NCBI GenBank assembly: GCA_030604975.1
Contig: JAUVUV010000001.1
Location: forward strand, 1 to 24,367
Reading direction: 5' to 3'
Source: Candidatus Glassbacteria bacterium
Lineage (GTDB): Bacteria; Gemmatimonadota; Glassbacteria; GWA2-58-10
DNA: 24,367 nucleotides
Below are positions 2,408-24,367 of the stretch, one piece after another. Each line of letters starts with the position of its first letter. The stretch's first letter is position 1. A program made the position numbers and the translations under genes. The notes under the pieces are model-generated. The model was given only the letters and a program-made list of their open reading frames with translations. It was not told where the DNA came from and searched no databases.

Positions 2408-3703
2408 ATGGAAAAGGAGAAGAACAAAATAATCTCACGCCGTGATTTCATTGCAACCGGAGCTATCGCTGCAACAGCGATTTCCAGCTTTCCCTTCGTG
2501 AAAAACGCACATGCTCAGGGCAAGAAAAAGTTGAAAATCGGAGTTGTTGGCTGTGGCGGCAGAGGCACCGGAGCATGTGCGAACGCCATTGTTGCAGACC
2601 CGGGTAATATCGACCTGGTGGCCATGGCCGATGTCGCGCCGGAACAGATCGAAAAAAGCCTGAAGGCACTCGAAGAAACCCGGGAACTCCAGGGGGAACT
2701 TCAGAAAAACATCAAGGTCGCCAAAGACCATATCTTCCTCGGCGCGGACGGTTTCAAACAACTGCTTCAGACCGATATCGACTATGTGCTCCTGACAACA
2801 CCCCCGGGCTTCAGGCCCCTGCATTTCGAGGAGGCAGTTCGGCAGGGCAAGCATATCTTCGCGGAAAAACCCGTGGCGGCCGATCCTGTAGGCTGCAGGA
2901 ATATCAGAGCATCAGCGCAGAAAGCAAAGGAGAAAGGGCTTTCTGTGGTTGTCGGGCTCAACGCCAGGCACGACAAGTCAGTGATGGAGACCGTGAAAAG
3001 GATCCACGACGGCGCTGTCGGCGACATCCGCACCGGCACTATTCACCGCCTCGGCGGAGGTCTCTGGCACCGCGGCTCCAACCCGCTCTGGAGCGAGATG
3101 GAATACCAGTGCAGAAACTGGTATTATTTCGTCTGGCTCTCCGGCGACCAGATAGTGGAGATGGTCGTTCATCAGATCGACCTGATGAACTGGACCCTGG
3201 GTGCCCACCCGATCAGCGCCCTGAGCCAGGGAGGCCGCCAGGTCCGCACCGACCCTAAATATGGCAACATCTGGGACCACATGACTATCGATTACGAATA
3301 TCCCGACGACGTGCATGTGTTCTGTATGCTCCGCCAGTGGCCCAACTGTGATAACAAAAACCAGAACAGGGTTGTCGGCACGATCGGCGAGAGCGATTGC
3401 AGGAGGACAATCAGGGGCCAGAACAGGTGGAGATACAGGGATGAAAGGACCAACTCGAGCGTCTACGAGCACCAGGAGCTGATCGAAAGCATACGGAACG
3501 GCACGGCGAGAAACGATTGCCTGGATTTCGCTGTCGACAGTACACTCACCGCAATCATGGGACGCGAATCCGCTTACACTGGTAAAATTGTTACCTGGGA
3601 CGAAATGATCAATTCCGATCTCGATCTTTTCCCCAAGAACTATCAGTTCGGACCGGCGCCGAAAAGGCCGGTGGCCATGCCGGGAGAGCCGAGACCGGTA
3701 TAA
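2408..3703 (+). CDS. Gfo/Idh/MocA family NAD(P)-dependent oxidoreductase with twin-arginine signal
   Basis: Tat motif SRRDFI with an AHA cleavage site, Rossmann motif KIGVVGCGGRG, EKP motif, and NWYYFVWLSGDQIVEMVVHQID. RBS GAGGGG lies upstream of the ATG. Confidence 0.9.
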   Translation: MEKEKNKIISRRDFIATGAIAATAISSFPFVKNAHAQGKKKLKIGVVGCGGRGTGACANAIVADPGNIDLVAMADVAPEQIEKSLKALEETRELQGELQKNIKVAKDHIFLGADGFKQLLQTDIDYVLLTTPPGFRPLHFEEAVRQGKHIFAEKPVAADPVGCRNIRASAQKAKEKGLSVVVGLNARHDKSVMETVKRIHDGAVGDIRTGTIHRLGGGLWHRGSNPLWSEMEYQCRNWYYFVWLSGDQIVEMVVHQIDLMNWTLGAHPISALSQGGRQVRTDPKYGNIWDHMTIDYEYPDDVHVFCMLRQWPNCDNKNQNRVVGTIGESDCRRTIRGQNRWRYRDERTNSSVYEHQELIESIRNGTARNDCLDFAVDSTLTAIMGRESAYTGKIVTWDEMINSDLDLFPKNYQFGPAPKRPVAMPGEPRPV

Positions 3704-9544: not shown

Positions 9545-11569
9545 ATGGCCTCCTGGCAAAAACCACCTAGCCAAGACATTATCTCCCGAAGGGACTTCAT
9601 CGGCAGGACGGCAGGTGGAGCCTTTCTAGCCCAACTGGCCTGCTCCGGCAAGAAAAGCCTGCCGGAGGAGGCTGCCCAGCCCTCTATTATCCCTACAGGT
9701 TACGGTTACGAGAAATGGGATGAGATATTTCAAACGATCATGCGTGGTTTCGTGCGCAACGCCCTTCGTACCTCGGACACTTTCGCTGTCTGCGACTACC
9801 GCGAAGGCCTGATCCTGAAAAATTTCCTTTCGGCCAGCGGCAAGACCTGTGATTCGGTCACCCGGATCATGCCGGCAATCGCCGCCAGGATATTTTCTCC
9901 CGATGGCGCAAAGACTGTCACCGTGGACGGAAAAACCTGGCACCTGGAAGATATATTCGTCTCGGCGCTTAAAAACGCCACAGACCCGGCGAGCAAGGAT
10001 TTCTGGGAATATGTAACGCCCCGCGGCTGGGATCAGCGCCAGGTCGAGTCTTCTATTGTGGCGTTCAGCCTCTGGCTCGTGTCGGACAAGCTGATGGACA
10101 AATTCTCCTCGCAGGAGAGAAAAAACATCCAGAACTGGCTGGCAAGCTGCACGAGTTTCACTGATCACGGCAACAACTGGGAGCTTTTCACCGCGGTTAA
10201 CCATGCCGCTCGTCTGGCACTTTCAGCACGCTGGCCCGAGTTCGAAGGGGATGAAAAATCTTTTCGGGCGGACCTCGAAGTGATAGATAAAATGTACGCC
10301 GGCCACGGCTGGTACCACGACTCCCTGGAGGGCCACGAGTACGACTACTACAATTTCTGGGTTTTCGCCTCGCATACTCTTTACTGGGACATGATGGTCG
10401 GCGACAGATTCCCGGATTTGCGAAACAAGTACCGCCAGAGGGTAAAAAAATTCCTCGAAACCACTCCTTATTTTTTCGGTGCTAACGGGAGCCACATCTT
10501 GTTCGGCCGCTCGCTGATCTACAGATGGGGCACGCTGACCCCGCTCGTGCTGGCCTACCGCATGGGTCTCTGGCCTTATTCAGTCAGCCTGCTGCGGAGG
10601 ATCTGCAACAGCAACCTCGCCTTTCTCTGGGAGAGCGGAGCCTGGGACGCAGAAAACGAAAAGCTGCGGGAAACCCTTACCCCGCATTCGAGCCGAGCCG
10701 TTTGCGAAAGCTATATCAACAACGGCCATCCCTACTGGGGCATGCAGGCCTTTTTCACAGCCTCATTCGATAAGTACGACCCTTTCTGGCACGCCCCGGA
10801 GGAACCCCTGCCGGTAGAGGCAGGGGATTTCGCGAAAAAAATCGAATCTGCCGGTATCCTGTTACACGGATACAAAAAAAGCGGCCAGGTCCAGATGTGG
10901 CAGGCCCGCTGCTCCAAGCATCACCGCAACAAGTACTACAACTTCTCCTACTCCTCGCATTTCCCGTTCAACGTGGAGATAGTCCAGGAGCTTGTGCCAC
11001 CGGATAACATTCTCTCTTTCCAAACCGGCGATGGGGCGTACGGCAGAAGAGACACCCCTTACACAGGTGAAATAATCTCGGACCGCCAGCTTATCTGGCA
11101 GTGGAACACCTCGGTGGGCGAGTCGAAGATAGAAGTTGAAAGCACAGTGCTGATCGACGGCGAAATTCAGTGGCGGGCGCATCGGGTGAATATCACCGGC
11201 AGCCAGCAGTTGTCCGCGGCCGAGTCCACCTATGCCCTGGGGCTTAACCTGGAGGAAACCCCGGAGGTGCGCTCAGGCGGGGTCTGGGAGTACGGCAGGT
11301 CGCCAGCAACAGGGTACGCGGTGTTCATCCGGGCTATTTTCGGTTTCAACCAGCACGAGCCGCTGAGCGGATTCCAGGGCCGGGAGAACCTTAACAGCTT
11401 ACACCCCAGGGGCCTCCAGGCAAGTGTAACCTGCACCCTGATGCCCGGCGAACACGTGCTGATCGCGGCAGCCTACGCAAGTCCGAATCCTCTCTCTATT
11501 GACCAACTCCGGGCCCGGACAAACCAAATGCCGAAAGAGATAGCTGAGTTTGCCGGGATGGAGTTGTAG
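9545..11569 (+). CDS. DUF2264 domain-containing protein with twin-arginine signal (possible glycoside-active enzyme)
   Basis: Tat motif ISRRDFI. DUF2264-type motifs NNWELF, GWYHD, YDYYNFW and FGRSLIYRW, plus a beta-rich C-terminal region. Confidence 0.8.
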   Translation: MASWQKPPSQDIISRRDFIGRTAGGAFLAQLACSGKKSLPEEAAQPSIIPTGYGYEKWDEIFQTIMRGFVRNALRTSDTFAVCDYREGLILKNFLSASGKTCDSVTRIMPAIAARIFSPDGAKTVTVDGKTWHLEDIFVSALKNATDPASKDFWEYVTPRGWDQRQVESSIVAFSLWLVSDKLMDKFSSQERKNIQNWLASCTSFTDHGNNWELFTAVNHAARLALSARWPEFEGDEKSFRADLEVIDKMYAGHGWYHDSLEGHEYDYYNFWVFASHTLYWDMMVGDRFPDLRNKYRQRVKKFLETTPYFFGANGSHILFGRSLIYRWGTLTPLVLAYRMGLWPYSVSLLRRICNSNLAFLWESGAWDAENEKLRETLTPHSSRAVCESYINNGHPYWGMQAFFTASFDKYDPFWHAPEEPLPVEAGDFAKKIESAGILLHGYKKSGQVQMWQARCSKHHRNKYYNFSYSSHFPFNVEIVQELVPPDNILSFQTGDGAYGRRDTPYTGEIISDRQLIWQWNTSVGESKIEVESTVLIDGEIQWRAHRVNITGSQQLSAAESTYALGLNLEETPEVRSGGVWEYGRSPATGYAVFIRAIFGFNQHEPLSGFQGRENLNSLHPRGLQASVTCTLMPGEHVLIAAAYASPNPLSIDQLRARTNQMPKEIAEFAGMEL

Positions 11570-13432: not shown

Positions 13433-13861
13433 CTATACATCCAGAACCACTGTTGCCCTCAGGATTCCTTCGGGTTCGAGCCGCTCTATTTTCAGCCGGT
13501 GCCAGGTGACAGCCTTGACCTCCCCGGCGATCTCGTGACTGGCCTCATCGGCTTTCTCCCCCCGGGCAACCGCGGCCAGAGAGTTCTGCGTTAGCGATTC
13601 GAAAGCGGTCGTTGCGCATAACCAGCCCTCTGAGGTGTAGAGGTAGAGCAGTTCGGTCATCCAGCTCCGCAAAAGCTCCTCCGGGGATTCCTCCTCCAGC
13701 TCGATCTTCCTTTCCTCAGCCGGCTTTATTCGCCTCGGGTCAGTCAACTGCGCCATCAGCGCCTCTGCCGCAGAAGCAAAAAGTTCTTGCAGGTCTCTGC
13801 CGTAAATGTGAAGCCCGATATCTGCGGTATGCTCGAATAACTCGTATTTTTTTGACTTCAT
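13433..13861 (-). CDS. Archease (RtcB activator family)
   Basis: YELFEHTADIG, LFASAAEALM, EVKAVTWH and a C-terminal VLDV; 142 aa. Confidence 0.93.
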   Translation of the reverse strand: MKSKKYELFEHTADIGLHIYGRDLQELFASAAEALMAQLTDPRRIKPAEERKIELEEESPEELLRSWMTELLYLYTSEGWLCATTAFESLTQNSLAAVARGEKADEASHEIAGEVKAVTWHRLKIERLEPEGILRATVVLDV

Positions 13862-13942
13862 CCCTGCCAGCTTTCCTCAAAAAAGTTGTTTTCCCTAACA
13901 AAATCAGCCGCTCCACCGGTGCGAACCGTCAATGGAGCTTCC

Positions 13943-13968
13943 TTGACAGAAAAATCTTTTCTTGTCAA
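13943..13968. promoter_or_regulatory. Imperfect palindrome in the archease/dtd divergent spacer
   Basis: TTGACA-GAAAA-ATC-TTTTC-T-TGTCAA, i.e. two opposed TTGACA hexamers. Confidence 0.35.
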
Positions 13969-14031
13969 ATTGATGCAATATTTCATGGTCGCTTCTTAAC
14001 AAACTTATACCGCAGGAAAGGGAGAAACAAG

Positions 14032-14469
14032 ATGCGCGTTGTAGTTCAGCGGGTCAGTCGGGCATCGGTTACAATTAACAGTGAGGTTGTTGGGTCAATC
14101 GGCACCGGGCTGCTGCTGTTGGTGGCAATGCATGGGGAAGAAACCGCGGAGGATGTTGCCTGGATGGCCAACCGCTGCGTAGGCCTGAGAGTTTTTCAGG
14201 ATCCGGAAGGCAAGATGAACCTCTCGCTCAAGGATGTGGGCGGTTCGCTTCTGGTGGTCAGCCAGTTCACCCTTTACGGCGACTGCAGCAAGGGCAGACG
14301 GCCGTCATTTATCAGGGCTGGTGATCCGGAAATAAGCGAAAAACTGATCGACCGGTTTGTTGAACTGCTGCGCGCGGAGGACGTGAAGGTCGCCACCGGG
14401 CGTTTCGGCGCAATGATGAAAGTTGAACTAGCCAATGAAGGCCCGGTTACCCTGATAATCGAACGGTGA
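14032..14469 (+). CDS. dtd: D-aminoacyl-tRNA deacylase
   Basis: MRVVVQRVSRASV, SQFTL, GRRPSF and the Gly-Pro motif NEGPVT. A purine-rich RBS precedes ATG 14032. The 13612 start in the ORF track is spurious. Confidence 0.97.
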   Translation: MRVVVQRVSRASVTINSEVVGSIGTGLLLLVAMHGEETAEDVAWMANRCVGLRVFQDPEGKMNLSLKDVGGSLLVVSQFTLYGDCSKGRRPSFIRAGDPEISEKLIDRFVELLRAEDVKVATGRFGAMMKVELANEGPVTLIIER

Positions 14470-15184: not shown

Positions 15185-15380
15185 GAAGAGATAAAAAATT
15201 TCTGCAAAGTTAACTGTAACGAGAGCTTTCCGCTGTTTTCCAAAATTTCGGTCAAGGGTGATGACATTCACCCGTTGTATGAGTATCTTACTTCCGAGGA
15301 TACCAATCCAGGGTTTGCTGGTGAAATACCCTGAAATTTCACCAGGTCTCTGGTTAACCGGCAGGAGTTTGATTGCCAGG
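15185..15380 (+). pseudogene. Glutathione peroxidase family gene remnant (C-terminal half)
   Basis: The frame from 15185 reads EEIKNFCKVNCNESFPLFSKISVKGDDIHPLYEYLTSEDTNPGFAGEIP*NFTRSLVNRQ, matching the GPx consensus EEIKxFCxxNYGVTFPxFSKIxVKGxxxHPLYxYL...IxWNFTKFLVDRxG. TGA at 15332-15334 replaces the Trp. LIAR follows in a shifted frame at 15369-15380. Confidence 0.85.
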
Positions 15381-17064
15381 CACACAGGCTTCCAGCCCGA
15401 ATTTAGCGGATAGCAAGCCATCCGGCACGCCTATCAGGCTCTGCGTACTGGTAGCGGTGGTGTATTTACTGATCACCCTGCCCTTTCTGGGACGTCCGCC
15501 GCTGTTCGACCCGGACGAGGGCTACTATCCGGAAACCGCCCGCGAGATGCTCGAGCGCGGCAACCTGCTCGACCCGATATTCAACGGCCAGCCGCGCTGG
15601 GGCAAGCCAGTTGCATTTTATCTGGCCGAGACTGTCTCTTTCAAGGTGTTCGGCATGGATGAATGGGCGGCAAGGCTGCCGAGCGTTCTCGCCGGCCTTG
15701 GATTTGTCCTGCTGACCCTCTCCGCCGGCGCCCGGCTCTTCAATGTCCGGGCCGGTTTTTACGCAGGCCTGCTTACCGCCGTGTCTTTGCAGCCGGTGGT
15801 TTACTCGCGCACTGCGGTTCCAGACATGCTGCTTAGCGTTTTCGTAACTCTGTCGCTTTACGCTTTCCTTCGCTCCCGGGTGATTGGCAGGCAAACAGCT
15901 TCTGATAATACAAGGTGGTGGCTTCTGCTTGCCTATGCCTCAGCCGGCCTCGCTTTTCTTACCAAGGGCCCCCTGGGTCTGATTCTTCCCGGCTTGACAA
16001 TCTTTGCCTACCTCCTTTTTTCTGGAAACGCGAAAGGTCTTCTCGAGCTAAAACCCCTGACTGGAATCCTGGTGTTCCTTCTGGTCGCTGCTCCCTGGTT
16101 TATTTACATGTACTCTCTTCACGGGGTACCTTTCCTGAACGAACACTTTATCCAGCGGAATGTCAACCGTTATTTCACCACTAAATGGCAGCACTCGGGC
16201 TCGGTTCTTTATTATGCACCAGTGCTTATCGCCGGGGTTTTTCCCTGGACAGTGGCTTTTCTGGGGGGTCTGGGCTCCATTTTGCACCAGGCATTTGGGA
16301 AAGCGCGGAGGCTGGGAAACAAGACATTTCGCAATGAGGATATTTTCGTTTTCTGCTGGTTCGGCGTGATGTTTATTTTTTTCAGTTTCAGCCATTCCAA
16401 GTTGCCGAATTATGTACTGCCGCTATATCCGGCGATGATACTCCTTGCTGCACGCTTTATCCTGGAACTCGAAAATCGCCCATCGAGCAAGCTTGCCCAT
16501 GCCCTTGTCTGGATTACCGCTGGCTTAACTGCCGCGCTGGCCCTCGCAGGAGGTTCCGTTCTGGCAGGCAAGCTGAAAGAGGATTTCGCAACCATTCTTT
16601 TCTGGCTTTCGCCTTTGGTAATAATAATGGCGGCGGCACCTGTTTTTCTATTCACGAAGAGGCTTACCCACTGGGTGGGAGTCTCCGCTGCCGGGATGGT
16701 GGTGTTCATGGCTGTCATAACCGGGCTTGCGATCCCTGAAATAGACCGGCTGCAGGCGGTTAAAACCTTGAGCCTCGAACACCGGCACCGTTTTGAAGAT
16801 ACCCCGCGCCTGGCGGTCTGGCGGGTCTGGCAGCCCTCCTTTCTGTTCTACACAGGTAAACAGGTTCTGCGTTTCAACCCTGATCTCGACAACTGGGAAA
16901 AGCCCCGAGCCGAGGGAATACGCTGGGTGCTGACCCGCGAGTCTGCACTCGGAGAGATAGAGAAACTCACCGGAGCGCTGCCTGAGGAAGCTTACCGAAT
17001 GGGAAACAGGGTACTGCTCCGGATTGCGGCAAACAACGCCTCTCAGGACGAAAGTGGCTATTAA
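15373..17064 (+). CDS. ArnT/GT39-like (undecaprenyl-phosphate-sugar dependent) membrane glycosyltransferase
   Basis: FDPDEGYYPETAREM, KPVAFY, ARLPSVL, LTKGPLG, PWF and SKLPNYVLPLYP, with many TM helices. TTG start has AGGAG 5 nt upstream; the exact start is uncertain. Confidence 0.9.
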   Translation: MPGTQASSPNLADSKPSGTPIRLCVLVAVVYLLITLPFLGRPPLFDPDEGYYPETAREMLERGNLLDPIFNGQPRWGKPVAFYLAETVSFKVFGMDEWAARLPSVLAGLGFVLLTLSAGARLFNVRAGFYAGLLTAVSLQPVVYSRTAVPDMLLSVFVTLSLYAFLRSRVIGRQTASDNTRWWLLLAYASAGLAFLTKGPLGLILPGLTIFAYLLFSGNAKGLLELKPLTGILVFLLVAAPWFIYMYSLHGVPFLNEHFIQRNVNRYFTTKWQHSGSVLYYAPVLIAGVFPWTVAFLGGLGSILHQAFGKARRLGNKTFRNEDIFVFCWFGVMFIFFSFSHSKLPNYVLPLYPAMILLAARFILELENRPSSKLAHALVWITAGLTAALALAGGSVLAGKLKEDFATILFWLSPLVIIMAAAPVFLFTKRLTHWVGVSAAGMVVFMAVITGLAIPEIDRLQAVKTLSLEHRHRFEDTPRLAVWRVWQPSFLFYTGKQVLRFNPDLDNWEKPRAEGIRWVLTRESALGEIEKLTGALPEEAYRMGNRVLLRIAANNASQDESGY

Positions 17065-17186: not shown

Positions 17187-18764
17187 ATGAATTTTAAACG
17201 GGCCAGAAATCCGTATGTTTATGCCAGCATCACGGTGATTGTCCTGATGATGGCGGGTTGGCTGTTCGGCAGGTTGCTGGCCACCTCTGACAACACCTAC
17301 ATGCGCCTGCTGCTTCTCCAGGATGTTGTCAACCAGGTCTCTCTGCGCTATGTAGACAAGATCCCGCCAGACCAGCTTTACCGACGGGCAGCGGAAGGGC
17401 TGCTCAAGGGACTTGATCCCTACACCGAATTGATTCCAGCAGAGGAGTACAAGCGATTCCAGGAACTGCAGGTCAAAAGCGAGTACCTGGGCACCGGCAT
17501 CTCAATCACCCGGACAAACCGCGAAATTGTGGTGATGTCAACTTTTCCCGGCTCCTCAGCCTACCGCGAGGGGATCCAGCCGGGGGACCGGATTATCCGG
17601 GTCGACGGCAAATCCACCAGGAACTGGACCACCGAACAGGCCTCGCTACACCTGCTGGGCGAGGAGGGAACTACGGTCGAGGTGGCAGTTTCCCGCATGG
17701 GAGTACCTGATCCGTTGAACTTCACCCTGACCCGTGAGCAGGTGATCGTTCCCACGGTAACCAGGCATTTCATGCTACCCGACAGTGTAGGATATGTCAG
17801 GCTTGCCAACTTTACCGAGCGCTCTGCAGAGGAACTGAAAAAATACGTGGAAAATCTGCTGGCTGAGGGGATGAAATCACTCATTCTCGACCTGAGAGAT
17901 AATGCTGGCGGACTTACCGAAAGCGCCATAAATATCTGCGGCCTCTTCTTATCCGGCAAAGAACTGATAGTGTCGATCCGGGCCCGAAGGAAAGAAGACA
18001 GCAGCAGCTTTTTCTCCAAAAGCAAACCCGTGTTCAAGGACCAGCCGATGGCGGTTCTGATCAACGAGTTCACCGCATCCAGCAGCGAAATAGTCGCCGG
18101 GGCGCTCCAGGATCACGACCGGGCGGTAATTTTGGGAAAGAACTCATTCGGCAAGGGGCTGGTCCAGACCACGTTCCCGTTGAACTCGGGTGATGTGCTT
18201 AAAATCACCACGGCCCGCTACTATACCCCCAGTGGACGTAATATTCAGCGAGAAAATTTCAGCCGTATCGGCCGATTGTCCGAGAAAGAAGACTCTGAGG
18301 AGGAGCCAGAGACGCAGGCAGTATTTAAAACCGATATGGGGCGGGAAGTGCTCGGCGGGGGCGGGATCGCGCCAGATGTCGAGGTGGCCGAGGACAGCGC
18401 CGCATTCGACCTCTCTATTGTTGAACTTTTGCCCCATTCATTCAATTTCGCAGTGGCCTACAAGAGCGAGCACCCCAACCTCGACAAGTCGTTCCGGGCA
18501 GACAGGGAAGTCTTCAACGCTTTTGTCAGTTTCCTGAAAAACAAGGGCGTGGAAGTGGATGATAAAAAGCTCAACAGGCATCGCGCCTTTATCACGGACG
18601 ATCTGCTCACCTACCGAATCGCCCAGGTAACCTGGGACGACAATACCGCTTATCAGCTCATTGCCGGCTCCGACCGGCAATTGAATAAAGCCCTTGAAAT
18701 CCTTAGCAGCGCCAAAAGCCAGAATGAAATTTTCGAGAAAATTATGAAGGAAGGCAAAGATTGA
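17187..18764 (+). CDS. S41 family carboxy-terminal processing protease (CtpA/Prc-like) with PDZ domain
   Basis: N-terminal TM anchor, LDPYTE, PDZ region (GIQPGDRIIRVDG), LDLRDNAGG, catalytic TASSSEIVAGALQD, FGKGLVQ and TARYYTPSGR. Confidence 0.95.
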   Translation: MNFKRARNPYVYASITVIVLMMAGWLFGRLLATSDNTYMRLLLLQDVVNQVSLRYVDKIPPDQLYRRAAEGLLKGLDPYTELIPAEEYKRFQELQVKSEYLGTGISITRTNREIVVMSTFPGSSAYREGIQPGDRIIRVDGKSTRNWTTEQASLHLLGEEGTTVEVAVSRMGVPDPLNFTLTREQVIVPTVTRHFMLPDSVGYVRLANFTERSAEELKKYVENLLAEGMKSLILDLRDNAGGLTESAINICGLFLSGKELIVSIRARRKEDSSSFFSKSKPVFKDQPMAVLINEFTASSSEIVAGALQDHDRAVILGKNSFGKGLVQTTFPLNSGDVLKITTARYYTPSGRNIQRENFSRIGRLSEKEDSEEEPETQAVFKTDMGREVLGGGGIAPDVEVAEDSAAFDLSIVELLPHSFNFAVAYKSEHPNLDKSFRADREVFNAFVSFLKNKGVEVDDKKLNRHRAFITDDLLTYRIAQVTWDDNTAYQLIAGSDRQLNKALEILSSAKSQNEIFEKIMKEGKD

Positions 18765-19051
18765 GTACGAAAAAAAGCCCCAGGGATAAGACCAAAACAC
18801 TGCCTAAAAGCTCATCCGGCAGCTTCTTTACTCTGATAAACGAAAAACCCTCTGATTTCTGGTGGAACTTTGTCTATTTTCTCATTCTAAGCACAGCGAT
18901 CACATTTATTCTGGTAAACAATTCGGCAAACACCTTGAGGAGTACAACCGCGCTGATTATTCTCGGCCTCCTGCTGAGCCTTGACATATTCCCCACCGTT
19001 TACATGGTCAAAATCCTGCTCCGTTTTACGCGCAACAGATACCTGCAGTAA
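18761..19051 (+). CDS. Small hypothetical membrane protein (2 predicted TM helices)
   Basis: The TTG start overlaps the S41 stop (TTGA). A basic N-terminus is followed by two hydrophobic stretches. Confidence 0.55.
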   Translation: MSTKKSPRDKTKTLPKSSSGSFFTLINEKPSDFWWNFVYFLILSTAITFILVNNSANTLRSTTALIILGLLLSLDIFPTVYMVKILLRFTRNRYLQ

Positions 19052-19149: not shown

Positions 19150-20340
19150 TTATTTTACCGGAAACACCATCAGCTGGCTCAGGGATTCGTCTTCTCCCAT
19201 AAAGATATAGCAGCCGTCCTCTGATGCCGTAACCGTTGCGATCTGGAACCCGCGCCAGGGCAGTTCGCCCCCTATTTCAGGCGCGTAAAGCGGGAACCTC
19301 GGGTTGCCGAGATCGGTGAATCCACTGTCATTCGGATCGTAAACAAAAAGGTGGGCGTATCCGGGAAGCGCTCCAGCCACGCCATAGAGCTTTCCATCAC
19401 AGCCGAAAGCCAGGCCCACCAGCCGCGGCATCATGATCGGTTTTCCCAGGTTGGTTAACCTGCCGGTTACGGGGTCTATCTTGAAAAGCTGGCCGTCTCC
19501 TGCATTGCCTCCGTACAGAGTACCGTCTGGCGCCACAGCCCAGGAATCCACCCTTCCCAGCGAGCGCCGGCCCCAGACAATGGGGAGTTCGTCTTTCAGG
19601 GTCTCTATTTTACCGCTTTGCGGGTTGAAACGGAAAACGCTGTTCACCGGCCTGCTCCCATAGACCCGGCCGCTTTTGTCCACCACCAGTGCGCGGCTGA
19701 GGAAATCCTCCGGCTCGAGTGCATAGGAATGGTAGTAGCCGAGTTGTCTTTGGGTGGCTGCGGTTTCATCGTAAACCTGCACCTTGCCGGACTGGATATT
19801 GTAGGTAAAAAATCTGCCGCTCGGATGAGCGATTCCGTAAAGCATATTCAGCCTGCTGTCCGCTGTGATCGCGAAAATCCCTTCCCCATTCACCGGCTCG
19901 CCTAAATCGGTTACCTCGATTTTTTTGTTGGCAAATCGTACCTTGATCAGATGACCGCTTGCTCCCTCCTTATCCGGCATCGTGCCGGCATAGAGCACAG
20001 TCCCCCCGCGCCCGAAACCGCTCTGGATCGCACGCTGATCCGGTAAAACCTCGGCCAGGTCGTGTACGACCTCGAGGCTGCGGCTGGTCAATGAAACTGC
20101 GAAAAGAAACGGAGAGAGCCCCTCATTGGCCCGGGTACCGCCGATAGCATGGTCGCCGATACAGGTAAGCGAGGTGATCGCGTTGCGGTAGATCGGCAGG
20201 CGCAGCCGGTAAGTATTTTCCAGAGAAACCTCAACAGCGAAACTGCCTTTAGGCGAGAAAAACTTATAGTCGCCAGCCAACGGCCTGAACATTGCAAGCA
20301 CGGAAAAAGCAGCTGCGAGTGTCAATATCTTTCTGTTCAT
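19150..20340 (-). CDS. Secreted beta-propeller-like hypothetical protein (operon gene D)
   Basis: GGAGG lies 4 nt before ATG 20340. Signal peptide MNRKILTLAAAFSVLAMFRPLAG. Recurrent blade-like motifs (G.LYG; F.Y[ND]P..G; DLG). Confidence 0.85.
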   Translation of the reverse strand: MNRKILTLAAAFSVLAMFRPLAGDYKFFSPKGSFAVEVSLENTYRLRLPIYRNAITSLTCIGDHAIGGTRANEGLSPFLFAVSLTSRSLEVVHDLAEVLPDQRAIQSGFGRGGTVLYAGTMPDKEGASGHLIKVRFANKKIEVTDLGEPVNGEGIFAITADSRLNMLYGIAHPSGRFFTYNIQSGKVQVYDETAATQRQLGYYHSYALEPEDFLSRALVVDKSGRVYGSRPVNSVFRFNPQSGKIETLKDELPIVWGRRSLGRVDSWAVAPDGTLYGGNAGDGQLFKIDPVTGRLTNLGKPIMMPRLVGLAFGCDGKLYGVAGALPGYAHLFVYDPNDSGFTDLGNPRFPLYAPEIGGELPWRGFQIATVTASEDGCYIFMGEDESLSQLMVFPVK

Positions 20341-20388
20341 CAAACCTCCCGATTCCATTAGAAAGTAATTTTTGATTTTTTCCTGATT

Positions 20389-21636
20389 TTAAGGTGCAAT
20401 CTCTCTTGTTGGATTGAATATTATCATAAAAGGGCGGCTCGCCCCCGACTCGCCCATATTTTCCGCCTGGAGGCTGCGCCTCCGCCCGGCGAAATAAAGG
20501 TTGCCACGGTCGTCTTTCACATCGCAGCCGGTAACCTCGCTCACAACGTCAACCGGAAAGCGCAGCACGATTTGTTTCTCCCGGGTCAGCGGATCGAATT
20601 CCATGAGCAGCGTAGTGTCACTGACAACGTACTGGCCGTGCCCGCCGATAAAATAGTACAGCTTTCCGTTGTTTGCGAACCCCGAGTTCGGCGAGTACCC
20701 GCGGGGCGGAAGAGTTTCCATGTCATAAGTCGCCCCCAGAGCTTCGACAGAACCGATACCTCGCCTTTGCGGCCTGAAAGCGCAGACCATGTTGCCATAA
20801 GTGATCAGATAGATAACGCCGTTTTCACTGTCTTTGGCATAGGTCGGCACTCCGGTAATTATCCGTCCGGCCGGGGTTCCCGGAAAGGCAGGGATGCTGT
20901 CGCGCGAGAAAAGCAGCTGTCCGCTGTCCCGTTCGTACTTGACCAGGCGCTGGCGCCAGTCCACATAGTAGCCGTTACCCCACCTGTCACTGAATATGCA
21001 TCTCGGTACATGGTCACTTCCCACGCGGCCCAAGTCCCTGAAAATGTTATTTCCGGGGTCCCACAGCAGAAAATGCACCTGCGGATAGCTGACTCCGTAG
21101 ATCAGCCCTCCGACCCTGTCCAGGGCGATATCCTTGATACTATCGTACTTGAGCCCCAGGCCGAGGTTAGTCAGCCTTTCTTTTGCCGGATCCCACTTGA
21201 AAATGTAACCTCCTTGATAGCCGTGGGGATGGTTCATCAGGTACTCTTCACGGGATTCTCAGCCGTCTGTGGAAAAATACATGCAGCCGTGCGGCCCCTC
21301 AACGATCTCCGAATGTACTTTCCCCTGCCACTGGAAATCCCGCAGATTGGCCAGCTCGGGAAGAAATCCCACCAGACGCATCTTGTCCCGAATAACGTCA
21401 AATTCGTACAGACCTACTTTATCCCGGTGATTGGTCACTCCGATAAAGACTTTCTCGTGGGTGGTGCTGTAACCGATCGACCGCCAGGTGGAGTGCGCCC
21501 CGGGAAAGCCCGGGTATTCGACGAAACGGATGTTTTTCTCCGTGATCCGGGCCTCCAACCGGAAAGCACCCGTGACAATTAAGCCGAAAGCTACCGGCAG
21601 ACTCAGCAAGATCGCCTTTCGCACCAAACTTTTCAT
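20389..21636 (-). pseudogene. Secreted beta-propeller-like protein, paralogue C, interrupted by one in-frame TGA (21259-21261)
   Basis: ORF-track pieces 21259..21636 and 20389..21237 are in the same frame. The junction reads GCMYFSTDG*ESREEYLMNHPHG, versus GCMYFSSDGGESREEYLMNHPHG in paralogue A. Read-through gives 415 aa. Confidence 0.85.
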
Positions 21637-22877
21637 TCACCAATCTCGCGTTCCGGGTTGAAAATTACCATGAACGGCCTGCTGGCCCCTGATTCACCCA
21701 TCATCTCAGCCCTCGGGTCTCTCCTTCGACCGCAGAAATAAATATTACCCTCTTCGTCTTTAACGTTCGCTCCGGTAACCTCATTGATCTCTTTCAAAGG
21801 GAAAGACAGCACCATCCGTTTCGTCTTTTTTTCCGGATCGAACTCCATCAGCACGTTTTGTTCAACGCCGTCCACGTAATTCCCGTGCCCGCCGATAAAG
21901 TAATAGAGCAGGCCATTATCACCCAGTGCGAGGTTCGGGCAATAATAGTCGTAGGGCTGCTTCTGGTCGCTGTCGTAAATACCACCCAGGTCCTCGCAGT
22001 TGCCGAATCCGAGCCTGGTTGGGTAGTAAGCGATCATTTTAGAGCCGTAGGTGATAAGATAGATCATTCCTTTCTCCTGATCCTCGGCCCATGCAGTGAT
22101 CCCGGTAATGATGCTGTAGGGTGGTGTGCCTTTGAAAAAAGGCAGACTTTCTTTGGCAAAGAGTAATTTCTCCGTGTCATGCTCGTATTTGACCAGGCGC
22201 TGGCGCCAGTCCACATAGTACACGTTTCCGTAGCGGTCATTGAACAATACCCTCGGCACGTGGGTCGAACCGACACGTCCCAGATCGCGCAGATCGTTTT
22301 TTTGGGGATCGTACAGCAGAAGGTGCACCTGGGGGAAAGTGGTAGCCAGGATTTTGCCGCTCTTGCGATCTATCATCATGTCTTTCAGGCTGTCGAACCT
22401 TGGCCCCATGCCAATATTGTCCAGGCGTTCAGCCACGGGATCCCACCTGTAGAAAAAACTGCCGCCATAGCCGCGTGGATGGTTCATCAGGTAGAGCATG
22501 CGGGTCTCGCCGCCATCTGTGGAAAAATACATGCAGCCGTCCGGCCCTTCGACAACCTGTGAATGCATTTTGCCCTGCCACTGGAATTCCCGCAGGTTGG
22601 ACAGCTCGGGCAGAAATCCGTGGAGTCTCATCTTCCTGCGCTTTATATCATACTCGAAAAAACCCACCTTGTCCCGGTGATTTGTCACCCCGATATAAAC
22701 TTTCTTATGCGTTTTACTGTAGCCGATTGAACCCCACGAGGAATGCGCATCCGGGAAATCGGGATATTCCTCGAAGCGGATATTTTTCCTGGTGATCTCC
22801 GCCCCGGCAGGATGATAGCCGGCTCCGAGAACAAGCAAGACCATGAAAATACAGGCTCCCAGAACAGTGCGGTACAT
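21633..22877 (-). CDS. Secreted beta-propeller-like hypothetical protein, paralogue B
   Basis: Signal peptide ending AGA; colinear with A and C. Its start abuts the stop of A (TAGATG) and its stop overlaps the start of C (ATGA). Confidence 0.9.
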   Translation of the reverse strand: MYRTVLGACIFMVLLVLGAGYHPAGAEITRKNIRFEEYPDFPDAHSSWGSIGYSKTHKKVYIGVTNHRDKVGFFEYDIKRRKMRLHGFLPELSNLREFQWQGKMHSQVVEGPDGCMYFSTDGGETRMLYLMNHPRGYGGSFFYRWDPVAERLDNIGMGPRFDSLKDMMIDRKSGKILATTFPQVHLLLYDPQKNDLRDLGRVGSTHVPRVLFNDRYGNVYYVDWRQRLVKYEHDTEKLLFAKESLPFFKGTPPYSIITGITAWAEDQEKGMIYLITYGSKMIAYYPTRLGFGNCEDLGGIYDSDQKQPYDYYCPNLALGDNGLLYYFIGGHGNYVDGVEQNVLMEFDPEKKTKRMVLSFPLKEINEVTGANVKDEEGNIYFCGRRRDPRAEMMGESGASRPFMVIFNPEREIGE

Positions 22878-24119
22878 CTATTTGATCTCCCGTGTTGGAT
22901 TGAAAATTATCATGAACGGCCTGCTGGCCCCTGATTCACCTCTCATCTGGGCCTCTGCGTCTCTCCTTCGGCCGCAGAAATAGAGGCCGCCGTTCTCATC
23001 CTTGACATTTGCTCCAGTAACCTCGCTGATCTCTTTTAAGCGGAAAGATAGCACCATACGCTTGGTTTTTTTCTGCGGGTCGAATTCCATCAGGACATTT
23101 TTCTCTTCGCCATCTACATAACTTCCATGGCCGCCGATAAAATAATAGAGCATACCATTATCACCCAGGGCCAGGTTCGGGCAGTAGTAGTCATAGGGTT
23201 GTTTGGTCTCGAGATCGCCGTCATAAATTCCGCCCAGGTCTACCATTTTGCCAATACCGACTCTGGCTGGATAATAAGCGACCATCTTCGAGCCGTAGGT
23301 GACCAGGTAGATCACTCCGTTGGCCTGGTCCTCGGCATAGGCAGTAATTCCTGTTACCACGCGATAGCCAGGTGTGCCCTCGAAAGCAGGCAGGCTGTCC
23401 CTTGCGAAAAGGAGCTTACCTGTATCATGCTCATATTTAATCAAGCGCTGCCGCCAGTCAACATAATACATGTTGCCGAACCAGTCGCTGAACAGTGTCC
23501 GTGGCACGTGGTCAGAACCCACCCTGCCGAGATCGCGAATGTCGTTTTTCTCATGATCGTAAACCAGAAGGTGCGCCTGTGGGTAGGATACTCCCATGAT
23601 CCTGCCGCTGATTTGATCTATGGTAATATCCTTGACACTTTCGTACCGCATACCATAACCGAGCTTGGTCAGGAGTTCTCCCGCCGGGTCCCACTTGAAG
23701 AAAAACCCGCCGCCGTAACCGTGAGGATGGTTCATCAAGTACTCTTCCCTTGATTCCCCGCCGTCGCTGGAAAAGTACATGCAGCCGTCCGGCCCCTCGG
23801 TTATCTTCGAATGGATCTTTCCCTGCCACTGGAAATTACGCAGGTTGGCCAACTCTGGCAGAAACCCGCAGAGACGTATCCTGTCACGGATTACGTCGTA
23901 TTCGAAAAGACCCACCTTGTCCCGGTGGTTGGTCACCCCGATAAAGACTTTCCTATGGGTTTTGCTGTAGCCGATCGAACCCCAGGTGGAATGGGCATCC
24001 GGAAAGCTCGGGTATTCGACGAAGCGGATGTTTTTTTTCGTGATCTCCGCGCTTAGTATTCCAAAAACCGTCAACATTAAGGTCAAAGCCGTAAACATTA
24101 CTATTTTTATCTCTCTCAT
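22878..24119 (-). CDS. Secreted beta-propeller-like hypothetical protein, paralogue A
   Basis: AGGAG lies 7 nt before the ATG. Signal peptide ending ILSA. Repeated W/YDP....L..LG and G.(M/L)YF blade-like motifs. Confidence 0.9.
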   Translation of the reverse strand: MREIKIVMFTALTLMLTVFGILSAEITKKNIRFVEYPSFPDAHSTWGSIGYSKTHRKVFIGVTNHRDKVGLFEYDVIRDRIRLCGFLPELANLRNFQWQGKIHSKITEGPDGCMYFSSDGGESREEYLMNHPHGYGGGFFFKWDPAGELLTKLGYGMRYESVKDITIDQISGRIMGVSYPQAHLLVYDHEKNDIRDLGRVGSDHVPRTLFSDWFGNMYYVDWRQRLIKYEHDTGKLLFARDSLPAFEGTPGYRVVTGITAYAEDQANGVIYLVTYGSKMVAYYPARVGIGKMVDLGGIYDGDLETKQPYDYYCPNLALGDNGMLYYFIGGHGSYVDGEEKNVLMEFDPQKKTKRMVLSFRLKEISEVTGANVKDENGGLYFCGRRRDAEAQMRGESGASRPFMIIFNPTREIK

Positions 24120-24184
24120 TCACGCGCTCCTTTCTGAGGGTTATATGCACCTCTCGGTAAAAATCTCGTGTGCACTTTTAAGCG

Positions 24185-24207
24185 TTCAAATTCTATGATA
24201 ATTTGAA
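24185..24207. promoter_or_regulatory. Perfect 8-bp inverted repeat in the leader of the propeller operon
   Basis: TTCAAATT-CTATGAT-AATTTGAA. Confidence 0.4.
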
Positions 24208-24236
24208 GTTTATTGTTATTTTAAATTAGGTCTCAG

Positions 24237-24265
24237 AATTTATACTTATATGTAAGAGCTGTCAA
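24237..24265 (-). promoter_or_regulatory. Putative sigma70 promoter for the propeller operon
   Basis: On the minus strand: consensus TTGACA, 17 nt, TAAATT. Confidence 0.6.
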
Positions 24266-24367
24266 TCGGCTCTTTGGTATCCGGTAAGATACCGCCGACC
24301 ATAATGCTCAAAAGCCTAAAAACGCTTAAATATCTTTGGAAACCTGCTTAAAAACTACAAACGCGGA

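Follow-up and report, generated by a model that had tools for sequence, protein, structure and literature searches.

What use does a bacterium have for three consecutive copies of one secreted protein and, directly behind them, a single and only distantly related fourth one? This question is raised by a contig of 24,367 bp from Candidatus Glassbacteria bacterium (JAUVUV010000001.1), the whole of which is the window analysed here and which belongs to a 2.8-Mb metagenome-assembled genome (MAG), 88% complete. Four co-directional genes on its minus strand, called A, B, C, and D in what follows, together fill positions 19150-24119. Our answer is that the conserved unit is the pair of an A-type gene with D, not the triplet, and that the triplet is a lineage-specific multiplication of one subunit. 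As for function, we give an even chance to the reading that the pair is a periplasmic heterodimer of two β-propellers acting on hexosamine glycans of the N-acetylgalactosamine (GalNAc) type, with a duplicated A-type subunit and a shared D. Gene order, coupling, folds, fusions, and genomic context are the observations from which this reading starts, the binding of the two subunits is predicted, and catalysis and substrate are what we infer. The four genes are the following:

22878-24119, minus strand: gene A, 413 amino acids (aa), A-type propeller subunit with a Sec-type signal peptide
21633-22877, minus strand: gene B, 414 aa, second A-type paralogue
20389-21636, minus strand: gene C, 415 codons, with one in-frame TGA that leaves open reading frames (ORFs) of 125 and 282 aa
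19150-20340, minus strand: gene D, 396 aa, partner propeller subunit with a Sec-type signal peptide, distant paralogue of A

The original prediction, made from the letters of this DNA, described A, B, and C as colinear paralogues followed by a distant relative, and the sequences agree with this: the identity to A is 72% for B, 64% for C, and 24% for D, and that between B and C is 59%, with the A and D families aligning as colinear distant homologues in a profile-profile comparison (probability 95.8%, E 6.5e-9, 282 columns). It also called for a survey of copy number and neighbours across genomes, and for this we examined 80 loci with A-family genes, each in the genome of a different species, which come from MAGs labelled Glassbacteria and Gemmatimonadales, from Acidobacteriota, Bacteroidota, and Balneolota, and from one MAG labelled Chloroflexia. 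D adjoins A in 74 of the 80 as judged by tblastn, and given that five of the six exceptions end within 550 nucleotides (nt) of the last A copy, only one informative locus is left without D. The architectures are AD in 64 loci, AAD in 5, ADA in 4, DA in 1, A in 4, and AA in 2, the window being AAAD, and neither the window nor any of the 80 loci has two D genes. Among the 61 called A-D pairs of other genomes, the spacing runs from -8 to +127 nt and is mostly a 4-nt overlap, and the identity to the window copies falls in step for the two partners (A 50-86%, D 47-87%). The pair recurs in loci labelled as at least five phyla, including those of the cultured genera Dyadobacter, Larkinella, Mariniflexile, Arenibacter, and Reichenbachiella.

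Distant relatives of the two partners are also found joined in one chain. In the 799-aa protein A0A1G3PW73 of AFDB, the model of A aligns to residues 6-393 with a template modelling (TM) score of 0.78 and that of D to residues 405-799 (TM 0.77), so that the N-terminal propeller is A-like and the C-terminal one D-like, in the same order as the genes; it differs in being a single chain with only 17-21% identity, and its annotation says no more than "SMP-30/Gluconolactonase/LRE-like region domain-containing". The same arrangement holds for eight proteins of about 800 aa, in which the best-scoring half is the N-terminal one for the A profile and the C-terminal one for the D profile (in P0177, for example, at 35-381 and at 580-807, the latter with an independent E-value, iE, of 1e-41). 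The A-D pair would then be the split equivalent of these fused proteins, and would clearly exemplify a split tandem propeller, one subunit of which is multiplied for specificity. A remote relative of 658 aa, P0179, carries a SASA-type carbohydrate esterase domain at 15-241 and an A-like propeller at 266-597, a fusion that, by its domain content, may hint independently at an action of the wider propeller family on carbohydrates.

Neither the A family nor the D family has a name, a curated model, or a studied member. A, B, and C gave no Pfam or NCBIfam match besides a chance hit of B to NAC (E 0.15), D gave only short repeat-level matches (DUF6923 with 30.3 bits, Kelch_6 with 26.9 bits, and GloVer below its cut-off), and the A-family profile matched none of the sequences of solved structures even at E 10. 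A word-indexed search returned 465 homologues of A; the 120 best listed are 59-97% identical to it, and the source names of the listed homologues are all "hypothetical" or evident misannotations such as "ribosomal protein L37E". An exhaustive search of cluster representatives gave 246 relatives at E ≤0.001, proteins of about 800 aa among them, and literature searches on DUF5107, on DUF6923, on heterodimeric propeller glycoside hydrolases, on galactosaminogalactan loci, and on Dyadobacter GalNAc loci yielded nothing relevant. The earlier description of A to C as members of an undescribed family is therefore upheld by Pfam, NCBIfam, the sequences of the Protein Data Bank (PDB), and the uninformative names of the listed homologues.

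The propeller fold, which had been proposed from the sequence, is confirmed by alignment-based AlphaFold (AF2) models: that of A has a predicted local distance difference test (pLDDT) score of 89.3 and a predicted TM score (pTM) of 0.89, that of D a pLDDT of 88.9, and in both of them seven four-stranded blades can be made out from 28-31 strands. VIA aligns them with seven-bladed propellers at Z 24-31 over about 290-330 residues, with YncE, virginiamycin B lyase (2z2n, Z 27.5 with A and Z 30.9 with D), and WD40 proteins tied as structural neighbours. All that the fold searches of the PDB with Foldseek, of VIA-wide, of the AFDB clusters, and of the ESM Atlas brought up were generic propellers or clusters without a name, and an ESM Atlas feature search returned only clusters of "hypothetical protein" with loose leads to Reg_prop, SSL_N, and SGL. 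The combined check by structure, Foldseek, and Pfam that had been suggested for these proteins has thus given a propeller fold with no characterised family matched, and neighbours too generic for a function to be read from them.

Where, then, would such a propeller do its work? Among 31 sequences from several phyla, 86 of the 413 positions of A are invariant, and when these residues are assigned to blade elements from the strand list of the model, that is, by propeller topology and not by measured distances, they are biased to one face, as had been expected of an active site: of the 137 residues in the top-face loops (D-A and B-C), 42 are invariant, compared with 10 of the 72 in the bottom loops (Fisher p = 0.007), and the inner strands contribute 13 of their 38. 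Among the invariant polar residues of the top face and of these strands are H65, H103, H204, H331, D119, D221, R94, R207, Q99, Q181, Q224, K101, W46, W98, and W222, and the invariant residues of the bottom face are Asn or Asp of the turn type. Most of the invariant motifs first read from A, B, and C are kept across 31-36 members, with the conservation of GESGASRPF confined to the lineage of the window and its nearest relatives. The motifs of A are not kept in D, which has an invariant set of its own. In the models, this distribution is in keeping with a top-face functional site in the A-type subunit and with D reaching the rim of that site.

The prediction of a complex between mature A and mature D, with a 31-row alignment for each, three runs, and three controls, gave an ipSAE interface score of 0.85 (0.84-0.88 in the runs) against 0.00 for the best control, with a contact agreement among the runs of at least 70% and a pLDDT of the partner of at least 90. 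This level of score is reached by 58 of 80 solved complexes and by 2 of 110 mismatched pairs, and these calibration counts are only roughly valid here because our own alignments were used. On the side of A, the predicted interface is made of the outer strands of blades 3 and 4 (197-200 and 236-242) and the adjoining top-face loops (157-159, 180-181, 202-204, 222-223, and 245-255), and on the side of D, of the N-terminal SLENT segment (46-50), the loop 354-372, and residues 391-393. It is better conserved than the average of either protein (0.80 vs. 0.71 in A and 0.78 vs. 0.66 in D), and contains the invariant residues Y159, P180, Q181, G198, R199, H204, W222, R223, and F238 of A and N48, G333, W368, R369, and E391 of D. 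A, B, and C agree in most residues of this interface, so that, judging from these alignments, each of the three could pair with D.

We hold the formation of an A-D complex to be probable. A heteromeric complex had already been considered possible for these proteins, and with the adjacency, the fusions, and the interface score, it now appears likely in the specific form of one A-type subunit with D. We consider it improbable that A to D are independent monomeric enzymes or lectins which are simply co-transcribed, their adjacency reflecting a shared pathway. It is true that binding between operon neighbours is often absent and that a high interface score is not a proof of binding, but fused A-like/D-like proteins exist, the adjacency is near-obligate, with a fixed order and overlapping stop and start codons, A and D diverge in parallel, and the predicted interface is conserved and scores far above the controls.

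The substrate of the pair is suggested by its neighbours, which we clustered across 81 loci (the 80 fetched ones and the window), identifying the cluster representatives. The arrangement that recurs in Bacteroidota is SusC, SusD, A, D, and a 640-aa GH123-like protein; SusC is present in 25 loci, and the SusD-like clusters cover 19 and 8 loci. The 640-aa protein stands directly after D in 37 loci, has a weak match to the domains of glycoside hydrolase (GH) family 123, and matches the solved oligosaccharide-releasing β-N-acetylgalactosaminidase 8k2f with an E-value of 4e-22. The enzymes of that study (8k2f, 8k2j, and 8k2h) are related to the 640-aa neighbour and not to A or D, from which they differ in fold and family, and they provide functional context only; the natural substrates of GH123-related β-N-acetylgalactosaminidases are unidentified (Sumida et al. 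2024, PMC11087588). Other recurrent neighbours are DUF5107 proteins of about 1,090 aa with tetratricopeptide repeats (DUF5107-TPR; 24 loci), AgaS-family sugar isomerase (SIS) proteins (23), EamA transporters (21), S9 hydrolases with PD40 repeats (19), AgaR (19), which passes its NCBIfam equivalog cut-off, class II ketose-bisphosphate aldolases (18), and PfkB kinases (17). There are also an esterase, an extracytoplasmic function (ECF) sigma factor with FecR, and FG-GAP/UnbV proteins, and, in a few loci each, sulfatases (five loci), GH20, an Amidohydro_2 protein, and a GFO/IDH/MocA oxidoreductase. In one Acidobacteriota locus, the pair is surrounded by DUF5107-TPR, a GH42-like protein, and an S9 hydrolase. 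In the genome of the window, other contigs carry genes for four DUF5107 proteins and for an orthologue of the 640-aa protein with 56% identity to it, and on contig C509 (L100) an AgaS-family gene adjoins one for a PFK-family kinase.

This context points to the periplasmic processing of a hexosamine-rich glycan or glycoconjugate of the GalNAc or galactosamine (GalN) type, sometimes sulfated, and we hold a role of the pair in the use of hexosamine glycans to be rather likely. A and D belong with the secreted propellers of glycan-utilisation systems, here in the form of a split two-gene tandem propeller from unnamed families. In most Bacteroidota loci, the place of the pair is fixed between SusD and the relative of a β-N-acetylgalactosaminidase, and knowing its function could reveal the glycan targeted by these loci and add an enzyme or binding family to the carbohydrate-active repertoire.

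We suggest the following mechanism. One A-type seven-bladed propeller, be it A, B, or C, would pair side by side with the single D propeller; the A-type subunit would hold the functional site, a ring of invariant His, Asp, Arg, Gln, Trp, and Tyr residues on its top-face loops and inner strands, and loops of D would reach the rim of this site beside blades 3-5. In the periplasm, the complex would handle imported hexosamine-rich glycans or glycoconjugates of the GalNAc/GalN type, sometimes sulfated, working together with the GH123-related β-N-acetylgalactosaminidase-like enzyme, the DUF5107-TPR proteins, and the S9-type hydrolases, and the products would enter a route of AgaS, kinase, and ketose-bisphosphate aldolase. 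Multiplying the A-type gene and keeping a single D would provide alternative specificities with one common partner. That the complex is catalytic rather than binding is, in our opinion, slightly favoured. A bolder and only tentative proposal is that the A-D pair founds a new carbohydrate-active enzyme family, namely, a heterodimer of two distantly related seven-bladed propellers whose composite site would cleave or modify a linkage of GalNAc/GalN-rich glycans that no known family handles, and in which lineages would multiply the A-type subunit alone, against one shared D, to tune specificity. The xyloglucanases of family GH74, with two seven-bladed propellers in a single chain, a substrate cleft between them, and BNR/Asp-box repeats, would be a precedent for such a composite catalytic site; neither A nor D has a BNR match in Pfam, and GH74 is not among the top structural matches of the two PDB fold searches.

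Several points weigh against the reading of the pair as a hexosamine-glycan heterodimer. The structural neighbours are generic and tied, so that the fold confirms a propeller and gives no chemistry; the placement of the site on the top face comes from propeller topology and not from distances; some invariant residues lie in the predicted interface and may therefore serve assembly and not catalysis; and the complex score has the rough calibration given above. In addition, the Aga-type set comes with no obvious GalNAc-6-P deacetylase or second kinase, which means that the sugar is not pinned down, and the window itself has no SusC/SusD and no Bacteroidota-type neighbour adjoining the operon, whose neighbours are genes for an S41 protease and a PMT-family glycosyltransferase.

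The original prediction had gone in another direction, towards lyases of anionic polysaccharides of the PL24/PL25 kind. In polysaccharide lyase (PL) families PL22, PL24, and PL25, as well as in GH145 and virginiamycin B lyase, a single seven-bladed propeller bears a polar or metal site on its top face, and the idea that A-type proteins are such lyases, with a His/Tyr/Arg cleft and a tuning of A, B, and C to related substrates, uronic or sulfated, agrees with the seven-bladed fold, with the many invariant Arg, His, Tyr, and Lys residues, with the sulfatase genes near the pair in five loci, which make an anionic decoration possible, and with virginiamycin B lyase being among the best structural matches, though tied with unrelated propellers. 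None of this is specific, however: the Z scores tie with those of WD40 proteins and YncE, there is no sequence or Pfam match to the propeller lyases and hydrolases, and D has no counterpart in them. No known polysaccharide lyase is found in the best 50 of either PDB fold search (Foldseek and VIA-wide), which leaves room for one at a lower rank, and none of the identified recurrent neighbour clusters is a gene for processing unsaturated uronates (GH88/GH105 or KduI/KduD type), the constant partners being related to hexosamines. With the recurrent context being one of hexosamine/GalNAc glycans, the lyase proposal receives no specific support, and we regard it as improbable.

A propeller pair in a glycan locus may also do something other than catalysis, and the A-D heterodimer could be a periplasmic glycan-binding or scaffold module, keeping oligosaccharides ready for the neighbouring enzymes or for transport, or sensing them, in a way comparable to the glycan binding by tandem propellers of hybrid two-component sensors. 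The best Foldseek match of A in the PDB is the tandem-propeller sensor domain of BT4663 (4a2l), a hybrid two-component sensor for heparin that likewise has two seven-bladed propellers, lies in the periplasm, and belongs to a glycan-utilisation system; moreover, Reg_prop repeats occur in remote fused relatives of the pair, and no catalytic motif of a known family can be recognised in A to D. In contrast, BT4663 is one polypeptide that carries Reg_prop repeats and is fused to membrane, kinase, and regulator parts, its identity to A is 12-13% (TM by query 0.55), and A to D are secreted proteins of 396-415 aa with no Reg_prop match in Pfam, A and D standing alone with no transmembrane or kinase part. 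The loci already hold their regulators, AgaR and the ECF sigma factor with FecR, SusC/SusD loci do not usually contain soluble periplasmic binding proteins, and the 86 invariant positions kept across phyla, with many His, Asp, and Arg residues on one face, look more like those of an enzyme. For these reasons, a purely non-catalytic module seems to us unlikely, yet worth keeping in mind.

Next to D, and convergent to it on the plus strand of the window, lie the genes for a 96-aa hydrophobic protein (18761-19051), the S41 C-terminal processing protease (17187-18764), and the PMT-family glycosyltransferase (15373-17064). This trio follows D in the related MAGs L008, L009, L011, and L012 as well, and its synteny is conserved within the family-level clade. 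Such surroundings could bring to mind a service in the turnover of envelope proteins, with the propellers working, for example, as adaptors for the S41 or S9 peptidases: the S41 gene is a conserved neighbour in the family of the window, genes for S9 hydrolases are found repeatedly in loci of Bacteroidota and Acidobacteriota, and an M14 carboxypeptidase gene stands beside the GH123-like orthologue in the genome of the window. Nevertheless, the S41 gene lies on the other strand and accompanies the pair in one family-level clade only, and the partners across phyla are SusC/SusD, the glycosidase relative, and sugar-catabolic genes, so that we consider this role very improbable. The GH123-like orthologue just mentioned (contig C157, L091) lies between that M14 carboxypeptidase gene and one for a DUF4922 (HIT/GalT-like) protein.

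The way in which the A-type subunit of the proposed heterodimer was multiplied can be followed in a tree of 86 A-family sequences. A and B of the window fall in one starred clade of 10 rows, here A-type in the narrow sense, and C falls in a separate starred clade of 7 rows (C-type); because both clades are present in several related MAGs, the A/C split is old within the lineage of the window, and B is, by its place in the tree, a later duplicate inside the A-type clade. One to three copies of an A-family gene are present in 12 of 12 genomes of the family of the window, and none was found at E 1e-30 in 28 genomes of other families of the phylum. The tree also shows that A-type duplications arose independently in the lineage of the window and in Cytophagales, there as A-D-A'. 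The A-type and C-type clades are separated by 11 positions, concentrated in blades 5-6 and including the top loop 309-313, and among the differences is a pair of cysteines found in the A-type clade, in place of which the C-type clade has Ser and Ala:

about 23181-23183 and 22974-22976, minus strand: Cys313 and Cys382 of A, with clade-specific co-variation

This co-variation suggests a possible A-type-specific disulfide near the top loop of blade 6. Within one clade of the tree (L011-L018, L012), the labels of the MAGs conflict, reading "Candidatus Glassbacteria", "uncultured Gemmatimonadales", and "archaeon", the last of which is probably a binning or naming error.

Is the third copy of the window still a working gene? 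C is interrupted at one codon:

21259-21261, minus strand: in-frame TGA of C, at an invariant Gly of the D-G-G-E motif

The TGA replaces the second Gly of this motif, and the orthologue of C on a related contig (L010, 95-96% identical) is intact, with GGA at this site, so that C differs there by one substitution, GGA>TGA. Since B terminates on TGA, this codon is read as a stop in the organism. No Rfam family matches the region around the TGA, the sequence 3' of it folds no better than shuffles (z = +0.95) and has no stable hairpin, and no SelB was found above the cut-off in the 88%-complete genome. We therefore rejected an alternative genetic code or selenocysteine, with B ending on TGA, GGA in the orthologue, no selenocysteine insertion sequence (SECIS), and no SelB above the cut-off. 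An old pseudogene was rejected too, since the ratio of nonsynonymous to synonymous substitution rates (dN/dS) against the L010 orthologues is 0.30 for C, resembling the values for A (0.27) and D (0.31). The TGA in C is either an assembly error or a nonsense mutation that arose very recently, and not a case of recoding.

The ORF coordinates and N-termini bear out the gene layout as it had first been described, with four genes, signal peptides, TAGATG and ATGA junctions, and a 48-nt gap. The TAG stop of A directly adjoins the start of B, B and C overlap by 4 nt (ATGA), and the spacer of 48 nt between C and D is counted to the ATG of D at 20340, which is preceded by the Shine-Dalgarno sequence GGGAGG and whose Met is invariant in 31 orthologues, so that D has 396 aa and not the 402 aa of its longest ORF (19150-20358). 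By eye, the N-termini of A to D and of their orthologues resemble signal peptides of the signal peptidase I type, and the lipobox Cys is absent from most signal peptides of the A and D families, which indicates soluble periplasmic proteins. A GGAG lies 8 nt 5' of the ATG of A, and further upstream there is one promoter-like site:

24237-24265, minus strand: promoter-like site upstream of A, TTGACA-17-TAAATT, with 10 of 12 positions matched

The operon had been placed behind one strong promoter; the single match stands, and its strength has to be toned down, because the scan as a whole, with 7 sites against 5.3 expected from shuffles, is not above the shuffled expectation, and the promoter of A to D is plausible but unproven.

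Some further genes deserve mention. In relatives, a divergent gene of 399 aa with no Pfam match lies just 5' of A (L009:2307-3506 and L011:2238-3437); the contig of the window stops 248 nt upstream of A (24120-24367), so that this gene would lie off the assembly, and the idea that it encodes a third propeller of the A/D families was rejected with an hhalign probability of 0.85%. The GFO/IDH/MocA oxidoreductase of the window (2408-3703, plus strand, 431 aa) lies 15 kb from the operon, and since members of this cluster are found within 10 kb of the A-D pair in 7 of the 81 loci, the window included, it may belong to the same functional set as the pair. A DUF2264 protein of 674 aa (9545-11569, plus strand), encoded beside an AcrB-type pump gene, is probably unrelated, because it was not found near the pair in other loci. 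Finally, the ORF of the D-Tyr-tRNA deacylase (13612-14469, plus strand, 285 aa) matches Pfam only over residues 142-284, and its TTG start is probably placed too far upstream, with relatives calling a product of 145 aa.

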